A DNA stretch of 64,000 bases, from assembly GCA_964645485.1 (NCBI GenBank), contig CAZXZO010000002.1, positions 25,108 to 89,107 of the forward strand. The letters run 5' to 3'. Positions within the stretch are counted from its first letter, which is position 1. The number at the start of each line of letters is the position of its first letter. Shown here piece after piece: positions 32,401-33,727 of this stretch. The position numbers were made by a program, and so were the translations under genes. Under the pieces are notes generated by a model. That model made no database searches. It was not told where the DNA came from and saw nothing but the letters and a program-made list of their open reading frames with translations. The stretch comes from an uncultured Candidatus Poseidoniales archaeon (GTDB lineage Archaea; Thermoplasmatota; Poseidoniia; Poseidoniales; Thalassarchaeaceae).

Positions 32401-32765
32401 ATGCGTTTTTCACCTTTTCACAAGAGGCTTGGGCTTCTGGTGATTTGCAATTGTATATCGCAATAAATGATGATGATACAAATTTGACAAGCGTCCCTGT
32501 TGGTCTAGTTCGTGAGCAATCTGCTGGTGAAATTTTATGGCAAAATCTTGACTCACCAGCAGCAATTGGTTTGATGATTTTACTAATATCAGTCGTTTTG
32601 ATGGTTGTTACTGCAGCGATAAGACGTAGTGATGAAGAATGGGATGATGAAGAGGACGAAGATGCTCCGCCTCCACCTCCGTGGGCTCCGGATGAATGGC
32701 CCGAAGGTGCAGGACCTCCACCCGAAATCCTAACTAAGAGCACATCAATGCTTGAGGAAGAATGA
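26472..32765 (+). CDS. Giant (2097 aa) surface protein with jelly-roll (immune inhibitor A/MAM-like) modules, CARDB-like domain and C-terminal TM
   Basis: Signal peptide; repeated (L/M)xSPxxxI..F..W/F..DG..V..S.D.G..W modules closed by G(M/L/W)(F/Y)(L/I)DDV; TM then acidic Pro-rich tail. Confidence 0.8.
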   Translation: MEGVSDTRRAYLLAMLLIIMPMAGLVSANQTMWVGPSVVSSPAGGGNVTVTGFQVPQGEEVLDAWLEVSEAGMSDLGTGIEWVEDANGKLNFSWGLWNSTTADFFDGALSLDANHSVGRINDFETLKRVVQNWQYGGTPGVWEISDMLGIAGPINGSGRESSGGLIPIGGVTGRYIIATADDQALPNGVHSWMESPDFYIPNVINNFNLTFSYWQHMYTPNSVNGNADGSWVEMSIDGGANWNYITPEGGYNNRINPTAPSPNGSGGSNFEVWASPNATGWQQANFNLDNYPGITNASNVRFRFVVWTDVNSTVQRPGMFLDNVNLTNSGSDLGSWFHGNLSSYYADGANSFLSFEANLSNASGPIMLDYAVDFDMEGDIYDNFNWEWSLNNFSWTSFSPQMPSFGVLIGGQMYVDDSRGWKPLSHPLPQSLAGNSSVYIRVYLETDTFPGSGFGGTTLDPPEGLFIDDVRISSGTTGNQTTHLYLNFTDVNDGNPTHGNIGTGLDEWQHLTSHGVNGPSYQFDSFENSPLLPEGWEIDTDRGTGWEFRAHNTSWVYGPDTPDSGSYYAGIVFSDEYQPNTWTHLTSPALAIPVGSHARISFKQFACAEPGWDGGVVYISTDDGRTWIPYGQNEPDFYDTQQTQNPNSDIYNLWAMDGSNAKPTCYGQRGPSNNKSWVTKEADVSQYGGQAIKLRFSFYSDPLLEADGWYLDDVGLYVDWFEEQGTWTSDLIDTNRNGLGTIDIDASVPNGTWVRCSLLDEYGAILQGMENLSFPVIPLPGSLGEKVRIKLEMGTSEPELTPKVHALYVGGTNIFSARDTSNGWTISPYLDLNQTSGNLTNSGLATHSLTGPLIYANSPMQVFELSGVGAGVLVTLLDERGSSFNYGILGNKTVQRTIPLTAYRVQIDLQPGGWLNSLKVSGRMLQPGLNVSIDVGDDGSIDWAFSEGNDGRGQLGWQDSLMLSNTRSATTDSQWNGMNFISLLIPEGAIVTGGIVGVQTYQQSVEVNLSIAGAALLNQHPIANGQGILVPLDTAVIQSINAQVGMPYANSTRDWKQIPISLDTTDLTQIRIYGLNYILRDNVSGLGPVVSQAVNGSIPANGTYNIPVRVDSQAGGIGLWGGVEHAPLLVNEVVSVPETWLPDRPTIITTELTHLFSRELLASANLSLMAPSGDLISFSIIDLASTPIFSQNSGGGQVSFDTTSSTISPIERGWQIEWHLQTEWGWDDVDWLDVAADSWAVDGTNLADDVVRIGIGSKAVENDMEIDTWEVRNQNGNLLSTRGSPAYPFEIATGSIIEVSGKVRFEDSNSRPSNDDFQVSIQSEHINGTTQVIASSGPNGEWEATVVLEQTSGQVNLTAWILRPGPTGVSLTGATDVTADRTPVTLIIDSNPPTLGPLMAYTPSGPRPADGNVWPEDRLLPLSVEITEFEALGGPLLLHSWREGIDDVNGNGQADEWEYSILREITPMKENGTVKVDFPSLDLVANGELGKVSLYITGTDLAGHSVLNGGAPGVDNDMATLVTQDDLPTTISQPSISLDRWGNNLLVGQVHEFSFSLTDDNGIGSIDNISVALAPGDARGDIWLDPLSGILSVNDDSPITPVGLIIDELPAGSYKVIVQFRLGVDSPQSWNKTTQQPSVIVTEHGQVLALGSSSLSHLDWTVDGRVNLELLSANDLSPPYSGLIENTLYLQPDDRFNFSGQLNHPANGLNVTLDGDWQVNISMDDGQNNAERWQTILTDSSWFSATSEIPQSRWNRGSATVKATIVGGVQTIPISNMELLLVIDSTPPQLDIPESTLRVINSNQMRQQLVTVQVNEEGGMGENPLELHWSFRRHGVEIPSMNGISLLPLATQTEGVWTYSTRIDFDVNQKNLLPNDDLVIWIVGTDLAGHSLEGLGTEGNSRLTELRVIFFQPVLSELTVSPYNPTVESVFSIDGRVLNEGNDMGVVKIGLWAWQSGSGGRYLILNETNLTLLPQQHAFFTFSQEAWASGDLQLYIAINDDDTNLTSVPVGLVREQSAGEILWQNLDSPAAIGLMILLISVVLMVVTAAIRRSDEEWDDEEDEDAPPPPPWAPDEWPEGAGPPPEILTKSTSMLEEE

Positions 32766-32976
32766 CAAAGGGAAGCATCCACCAAGTTACCACTCAGGGG
32801 TACCCGACCTCTCACCGCGGGCGCAGCGGTGAGAGAGTTTTCGGCTTCGCCGCGCTGCGTTTGAATAACAAGATTTCAATTGTCACAGGCCCATTTTCTT
32901 GTTGTTTACCCTGTGAAACCGAACCCAGCTTTGACCGTATATTTGAAGGTGGATTGGCTTCCCCCTCAACTTACAC

Positions 32977-33058
32977 GCAGGGGTACCCGAGCGGTCAAAG
33001 GGGGTGGGCTCAAGATCCACTGCTTAGTGCTTCGCAGGTTCGAATCCTGCTCCCTGCA
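32977..33058 (+). tRNA. tRNA-Leu (CAA), long variable arm, no intron, CCA not encoded
   Basis: Acceptor GCAGGGG/TCCCTGC-A; anticodon arm GTGGG-CTCAAGA-TCCAC; T arm GCAGG-TTCGAAT-CCTGC. Confidence 0.97.
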
Positions 33059-33545
33059 CTTTGATTACTCATGCCTTCATCGTGCAGAGAGCGCAAAACG
33101 CTAACGTCGAACCTGCTTCGCAGTGCATCAGGTTGCTGTGCAACCTTCGCATCCTCAACCTTCCCTCTGCTCTCAGACGCTTCCATCAGTCCAGATTGAG
33201 GATTTTGAATCCTGCTCCCTGCATCAGATTTCATAAGATTTCAACAGATTTAATCAGGACAGGATTCGAACTCCGCGAGTTTTAATCCATCTTACTTCAA
33301 CAAAACTCGCTGGAGTTTGCCGCTGGACTGACCAAAGGGAAGGAAGCGTCAGACCGTTTGAAATCCTGCTCCCTGCACTTTGATTACTCATGCCTTCATC
33401 GTGCAGAGAGCGCAAAACGCTAACGTCGAACCTGCTTCGCAGTGCATCAGGTTGCTGTGCAACCTTCGCATCCTCAACCTTCCCTCTGCTCTCAGACGCT
33501 TCCATCAGTCCAGATTGAGGATTTCGAATCCTGCTCCCTGCACCA
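33042..33545 (+). repeat. tRNA-Leu 3'-end repeat array: four copies of (G/A)AATCCTGCTCCCTGCA separating units A-B-A
   Basis: Copies end at 33058, 33223, 33377, 33542; units 33059-33223 and 33378-33542 differ at one position; last copy followed by CCA. Confidence 0.93.
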
Positions 33546-33657
33546 ACCAATTTCATTCATTCTCCTTCCTCACTGCAAATTATTCTATCTAAATGAATGT
33601 TGACAAAGGCAGTAAAGGTAAGTGAATTCTCCAATATAAAAATCACTTTTCCAATTG

Positions 33658-33687
33658 AACAATATGTGGTTAATTCATCATATTGTT
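33658..33687. promoter_or_regulatory. Inverted repeat, candidate metal-responsive operator upstream of the P1B-ATPase
   Basis: AACAATATG-N12-CATATTGTT about 40 bp before ATG 33728. Confidence 0.5.
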
Positions 33688-33727
33688 AGAGGCACACATT
33701 CAAACAGGGGAGGCAATAGGTTGGGTT

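Follow-up and report, generated by a model that had tools for sequence, protein, structure and literature searches.

The window, by which we mean the whole 64,000-nucleotide stretch of DNA analyzed here, comes from a genome that we designate G000. Other G labels denote related genomes, and all coordinates are window positions. The locus of interest begins with the gene for tRNA-Leu(CAA) on the plus strand (32977 to 33059), which is found by ARAGORN, scores 51.5 bits with the Rfam tRNA model, and is 100% identical in G042. The last 20 bases of this gene, running from the T loop to the discriminator (33040 to 33059), are the source of a repeated block, and the last 17 to 20 bases recur at 33204 to 33223, 33358 to 33378, and 33523 to 33542. 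The overall order on the plus strand is tRNA, X (here called unit A), tail, Y, tail, X', tail, CCA. Unit A is a hairpin-rich stretch of about 160 bases (33060 to 33223) that encloses the segment from 33083 to 33223 described in a first-pass annotation of this DNA. Unit Y, together with the third tail copy (33358 to 33378), fills 33224 to 33378; it is an inverted relative of unit A and carries its own long covarying hairpin. X' (33379 to 33542) is a second copy of unit A, 99% identical to the first, and ends in the fourth tail copy (33523 to 33542). Put differently, a 184-base block at 33043 to 33226 is repeated at 33362 to 33545 with 99% identity. The array is followed by the ancestral CCA and the downstream flank (CCAACCAATTT..., 33543 to 33560), equal to the CCAAAAC... 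that comes after the tRNA in genomes free of the insert.

Unit A can be divided into an ordered series of parts. Its trailer (CTTTGAT..., 33060 to 33082) shows 61% identity with that of G042 and would be the loop joining the tRNA tail to an inverted, antisense copy of that tail (33083 to 33116). The inverted copy is in two pieces, TGCAGAGAGC (33083 to 33092) and TCGAACCTGC (33107 to 33116), separated by a 14-base filler that contains a weak AGCG/CGCT hairpin; its counterpart in G042, TGCAGGGAGC, is perfect antisense. The first-pass annotation was correct in calling this region antisense to the tRNA, as TCGAACCTGC is 100% complementary to tRNA bases 33034 to 33043. Next comes what we take as the family signature (33128 to 33150), made up of TCA, the hairpin P2 (AGGTTGC-TGT-GCAACCT, 33130 to 33146), and TCGC. 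A second hairpin, P3 (33151 to 33203), has a stem formed by ATCCTCAACC (33151 to 33160) and GATTGAGGAT (33194 to 33203) with one C/A mismatch, and its loop has conserved borders, CCTTCCCT (33159 to 33166) and CAGTCCAG (33187 to 33194). The unit ends in the direct tail copy TTTGAATCCTGCTCCCTGCA (33204 to 33223), which starts from T-loop position 54.

A separate feature lies on the other side of the gene. In the window interval 32791 to 32880, at a distance of 183 bases upstream, there is a 13-base copy of the tRNA-Leu 5' end (CAGGGGTACCCGA), and after it comes a perfect 10-bp hairpin (32809 to 32818 with 32826 to 32835). G042 retains the hairpin but lacks the 5'-end copy.

Conserved hairpins and tail copies

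Every pairing listed in the first-pass annotation is present in the sequence. TGCAGAGAGC (33083 to 33092) is complementary to GCTCCCTGCA (33214 to 33223) at 9 of 10 positions and closes the minimum-energy fold, P2 and P3 pair as described above, and AGCG can form a weak pairing with CGCT (33089 to 33092 with 33098 to 33101). On the tRNA strand the fold of unit A is not beyond chance (z = -1.4), with 19 of 200 shuffles folding equally well. The opposite strand folds better (z = -3.1), and across the family it is the more stable strand as RNA in 21 of 29 units. In an alignment of 30 distinct units fitted to a covariance model, 16 of the 17 pairs in P2 and P3 change on both sides (7 of 7 in P2 and 9 of 10 in P3) and 95% of the cells are paired, a level reached by none of 500 shuffles and approached by no slid register; a hand-made alignment, A1, shows the same pattern. 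It is these compensatory changes in relatives, and not single-sequence thermodynamics, that show P2 and P3 to be real and conserved as hairpins. The cells that are not Watson-Crick pairs comprise 16 G-U versus 17 A-C, mostly at two positions, a split that shows no strand bias and carries little information. As far as base changes can tell, the conservation of P2 and P3 gives no indication of action as RNA on the tRNA strand.

The acceptor-like closing stem behaved differently. There are 33 differences between direct tail copies and their tRNAs, 27 of which are covered by the antisense arm, and in 27 of 27 the arm follows the tRNA and in none its own copy. Given this 27:0 split in favor of the tRNA sequence, the closing stem is not maintained by compensation, and it is best viewed as a by-product of the inverted tail copy meeting the direct copy. 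The reading of the unit as a structured module is supported: the module is conserved and tied to the tRNA tail, with compensatory changes in P2 and P3 in 30 relatives and none in the acceptor-like stem. Each of the units aligned for tail comparison has both an antisense and a direct tail copy, the direct copies begin at T-loop position 54 or 55 in these units, and the mismatches between inverted and direct copies cluster in the T loop, notably as a recurrent A58 change.

Agreement of the antisense segment with the true tRNA at 27 of 27 covered positions where the direct copy deviates would also be expected of a cis-regulatory trailer evolved in place, in which the antisense sequesters the 3' half of the precursor tRNA and the direct copy relieves it; the location of the antisense segment, 15 to 45 bases behind the gene, would suit such a device. 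We regard this as highly improbable, however, in view of the comparisons described in the next section: the pattern of presence and absence is that of an insertion, unrelated tRNAs have the same core, six identical tandem copies stand behind tRNA-Phe, and some units have no adjoining tRNA.

The first-pass annotation had instead proposed that unit A is a functional noncoding RNA that mimics a tRNA end, is co-transcribed with tRNA-Leu, is released by RNase P and tRNase Z, and is under selection. We consider this unlikely, since tRNA models fail to match the unit. ARAGORN found only the real tRNA-Leu gene, and the Rfam tRNA model (RF00005, clan CL00001), applied to 32700 to 33700 at E values up to 10, matched only the gene at 32977 to 33059; Rfam as a whole, both at gathering cutoffs and at E values up to 10, gave nothing besides the tRNA. 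The position of the unit would fit co-transcription, as proposed, because the stretch from the tRNA to where the array ends contains no run of five or more T, and thus no oligo-T terminator. The 9 of 10 closing stem ends at the discriminator, as a tRNA-end mimic should, yet it is uncompensated; P2 and P3 covary and P2 is conserved above background, yet there is no G-U strand bias, and in 21 of 29 units it is the opposite strand that gives the better fold. In Escherichia coli, the tRNA-linked repeats (TLRs) do give rise to processed RNAs, three of which bind Hfq and CsrA (PMC8144298). However, related cores such as that of unit Y lie inverted, and the unit is missing from most congeners. Ribozyme, C/D-box, and K-turn motifs were also considered by eye and rejected, as they are not common to the units and have no Rfam match.

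Empty and filled sites and the extent of the family

The tRNA-Leu(CAA) locus was compared in 19 other genomes of the genus, and the unit is absent in 15 of them. At 11 of these 15 empty sites the gene reads ...CTCCCTGCA-CCA-AAAC... and continues to the same P-type ATPase gene. G000 has a 484-base block (X, Y, X') between the gene and the original tail with its CCA and flank. Because CCAACCAATTT follows it, the fourth tail is the original gene end, displaced by 484 bases, and unit A is identified by this comparison as an insertion. The first-pass annotation had pointed to TTCGAAT and a genomic CCA in the second copy of unit A. Both are there (33523 to 33529 and 33543 to 33545, respectively), but the CCA is the displaced ancestral tRNA end and no feature of the unit.

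Several relatives carry variants of the array. In G042, X and Y are followed by just 26 bases of X', joined to the flank as a stub; a Y-type unit stands alone behind tRNA-Leu in G123 and G178, and G006 begins like these two until its contig ends. Unit X is 75% identical overall between G000 and G042, comparable with neighboring intergenic DNA at 77% and 70%, and the parts of the unit differ widely, with P2 at 96% and the tail copies at 95% versus the trailer at 61% and the P3 loop at 55%. The 96% identity of P2 against a background of about 75% is a hint that the hairpin still has a function, which a purely passive scar would not require. At the tRNA-Leu locus of G165 (L299), an unrelated stretch of about 270 bases lies between the tRNA-CCA and the usual flank, with no tail copies.

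The core of unit A matches further contigs of the same genome, each time beside a tRNA. A hand alignment of seven units gave the shared order of trailer, inverted tail copy, TCA, P2, TCGC, P3, and direct tail copy, with CCTTCCYT and CAGTCCAG as the borders of the P3 loop. Two covariance models, R1 and R2, detected about 40 units, all 80 to 220 bases long and with the same ordered parts. With R1 and R2, units are found in G000 behind Leu, Phe, Tyr, Pro, and Gln genes and in relatives behind further Leu and Pro genes and behind those for Ala, Ser (three isoacceptors), Thr, Arg, and Ile. At least 15 kinds of tRNA gene carry them across two families of one order of Thermoplasmatota. Besides G000, 5 of the 20 other genomes of the genus have units, as do another genus of the same family and three genera belonging to the second family; a search of 123 genomes from the rest of the phylum gave nothing convincing. 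As a rule the units are on the same strand as the tRNA, at 10 to about 390 bases downstream, and their cores occur in both orientations, unit Y being inverted. An exact 11-mer from the gene's own tail, in direct or inverted form, occurs in the 600 bases downstream of 11 of the 34 tRNA genes in G000, compared with 0 of 34 upstream. One metagenome contig of the same organism has tRNA-Phe followed by six tandem 126-base units. A search with a specific pattern returned no viral contigs and three metagenome contigs, all loci of the same organism; the exact P2 pattern, which is too unspecific, gave only chance matches in viral and genome contigs.

Four members of the family, with an ACAG-type lead-in to P2, lie in ordinary intergenic regions (L267:1501-1595, L273:1501-1587, L277:1501-1587, and L281:533-616), where no tRNA or Rfam RNA was found within 1.5 kb. 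The L273 member has a closing stem of its own, ATTCCACC with GGTGGAAT. In a tRNA-Tyr(GTA) gene (L256:21-127, the same locus as C50 of G000), about 32 bases of intron follow position 37, and ARAGORN missed the gene; its G042 orthologue (L265) was detected by the Rfam tRNA model. The placing of this organism in the archaeal phylum Thermoplasmatota is based on a protein atlas and on this intron-bearing tRNA-Tyr. Two units follow the L256 gene, and after them comes a partial repeat of the start of the first. Several G000 contigs end just 3' of a tRNA gene (C2:4-78, C20:35-110, C22:40-115, C36:1-75, and the start of C50), and two of these contig ends show an antisense tail copy before the break. 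The contigs probably end behind tRNA genes because repeat units break the assembly, which makes the count of units in G000 a lower bound.

Enzymes and the likely mode of insertion

The family to which unit A belongs encodes no genes, and no recombinase or transposase accompanies the units. The sole tyrosine recombinase of the assembly is XerA-like, lies about 31 kb away on the minus strand (601 to 1647), and scores 203.7 bits with NCBIfam, where the equivalog cutoff is 220. No reverse transcriptase, Y1 transposase, TnpB, or serine recombinase was found in the G000 assembly, which is 82% complete. Two candidates of other kinds went unsupported: a primer-binding site of a retroelement, given that the assembly has no reverse transcriptase and the antisense segments often lack the acceptor end, and an IS200/IS605-TnpB guide RNA, given that the assembly has neither TnpA nor TnpB.

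At the sites compared, the gene is regenerated on its proximal side, the old tail is displaced downstream, and units stack in tandem and occur in both orientations. We think it probable that unit A is a copy of a family of gene-less, hairpin-rich insertion elements that integrate at the stretch from the T loop to the 3' end of tRNA genes in this marine order of Thermoplasmatota. Integration would be a site-specific crossover within the tail block, catalyzed by an enzyme presumably supplied in trans. In one variant, the inserting DNA might be a single strand whose inverted and direct copies fold together and so restore a duplex resembling the target. Lying within the 3' trailer of the tRNA, the unit would probably be transcribed with the gene and then removed, by analogy with the RtT RNA of E. 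coli. Several observations sit less well with an insertion element. The units come with no recombinase or transposase, four of them lie beside no tRNA, and P2 at 96% versus a background of about 75% hints at continuing function. In addition, free, viral, or plasmid copies were found neither in viral contigs nor in phage or plasmid collections, as searched by pattern scan and blastn.

Tyrosine integrases of the T-loop class are reported (Williams 2002) to cross over where the direct copies of the units begin, at T-loop position 54 or 55, with direct repeats of the tail that start in the T loop as their hallmark, and tandem accretion is typical of their sites. The tail repeats of the units start at the T loop, and the units stack as is usual at such sites, as they would if they were decayed att scars, CIME-like gene-less remnants of kilobase-sized, integrase-bearing plasmids or viruses that formerly resided in the tRNA genes. 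This origin appears quite improbable to us, since all of the approximately 40 units measure 80 to 220 bases with their parts in the same order, at least 15 tRNA specificities would be required, and an inverted tail copy is foreign to integrase scars. Moreover, no larger element with these ends was found in 21 genomes of the genus, in viral contigs, or in phage and plasmid collections.

Comparison with known systems

The insertion elements proposed here share much with tyrosine-integrase elements and CIMEs: the insert has a regenerated tail on one side and the displaced old tail on the other, the repeat runs from the T loop, copies stack in tandem, and relatives have empty sites. Flanking direct repeats of the tRNA 3' end and empty sites, by which CIMEs are recognized, are both found here; neither an integrase gene within or next to the insert nor a full-length cognate element was found, the nearest thing being the XerA-like gene about 31 kb off. 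The archaeal units also differ in having neither integrase nor genes within their 80 to 220 bases, in holding an inverted copy of the target, and in using one core for at least 15 tRNA species.

Folded single-strand recombination sites offer a second comparison. Integron attC and the CTX-phi attP(+) are such sites, the latter being used by XerCD. As in these, the imperfect inverted repeats of the archaeal units could fold into a duplex mimicking the target, mismatches fall in the would-be crossover region (the T loop), structure is conserved while sequence is free, tandem arrays form at one site, and the sole recombinase in the assembly is Xer-like. The archaeal target, in contrast, is a tRNA gene and not dif or attI, and the likeness is purely one of analogy.

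The closest parallel lies in bacteria. TLRs, including the RtT RNA of the tyrT operon (Rfam RF00391), were reportedly described by Egan and Landy in 1978 and by Rudd in 1999. The first-pass annotation knew of no such RNA in this archaeal lineage, which held in the literature searched, although a close analogue was described in E. coli as early as 1978. E. coli has 22 TLRs at ten loci, and the last 18 to 19 bases of each repeat the end of the tRNA or 5S gene ahead of it (Stenum et al. 2021, PMC8144298). TLRs, RtT among them, are cut out of tRNA or rRNA transcripts, and the sole clue to a function is that three rrn-linked ones bind Hfq and CsrA (PMC8144298). A mobilome paper on the E. coli rttR contains no evidence of TLR circular DNA (bioRxiv 10.1101/2024.07.17.603846).

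In the tyrT operon of E. coli K-12, each 178-base unit has an antisense tail piece, GGGGAAGGAT, a GTTGCC-gca-GGCAAC hairpin, and a 19-base tail end, the same layout as in the archaeal units and closest to the inverted Y type. TLRs and archaeal units alike are gene-less and lie directly behind a tRNA gene (for TLRs also a 5S gene) on the same strand. Unit A and its second copy have a TLR-like 3' end of 17 to 20 identical bases (33204 to 33223 and 33523 to 33542), and both systems form tandem arrays, with one to five TLRs per locus compared with X-Y-X' in the window and six units behind tRNA-Phe. The two are nonetheless distinct at the level of models. The RtT model (RF00391) had no match in the window region at E values up to 10, whereas E. 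coli units scored 133 to 138 bits with the same library, and the archaeal family model gave only about 7 bits on E. coli units, on the opposite strand. TLRs also belong to another domain of life, and the P2/P3 core, CCTTCCCT, and CAGTCCAG are specific to the archaeal order. On the strand opposite the tRNA in the K-12 tyrT-tyrV region (L316:560-1640), each TLR unit shows TCAG and a small hairpin, then CTTCGC and a stem, then a partial tail copy, an order that echoes the archaeal core with a nonsignificant score (E of 0.1 to 0.3).

By these comparisons, unit A resembles a TLR in its apparent working and is not, by model, a member of RtT. It is best read, on analogy, as an archaeal counterpart of the TLRs, a structured insertion without genes that sits in tRNA gene tails. 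A bolder proposal, to which we attach little credence at present, is that archaeal units and E. coli TLRs make up one cross-domain class of protein-less mobile DNA that integrates at tRNA tails as folded single strands, mimicking the duplex target and using a host Xer-type recombinase. If true, it would explain a puzzle open since 1978. Approximately one-third of the tRNA genes in G000 carry such inserts; these, and the contig ends behind tRNA genes, affect the annotation and binning of these abundant ocean archaea. The E. coli TLRs were described in 1978 and still lack an explained origin and, for the most part, a function. The archaeal family, in which diverged copies are numerous, empty sites are clearly told from filled ones, and covariation is strong, is a far richer comparative data set, useful for learning how such units arise and whether their RNAs matter.
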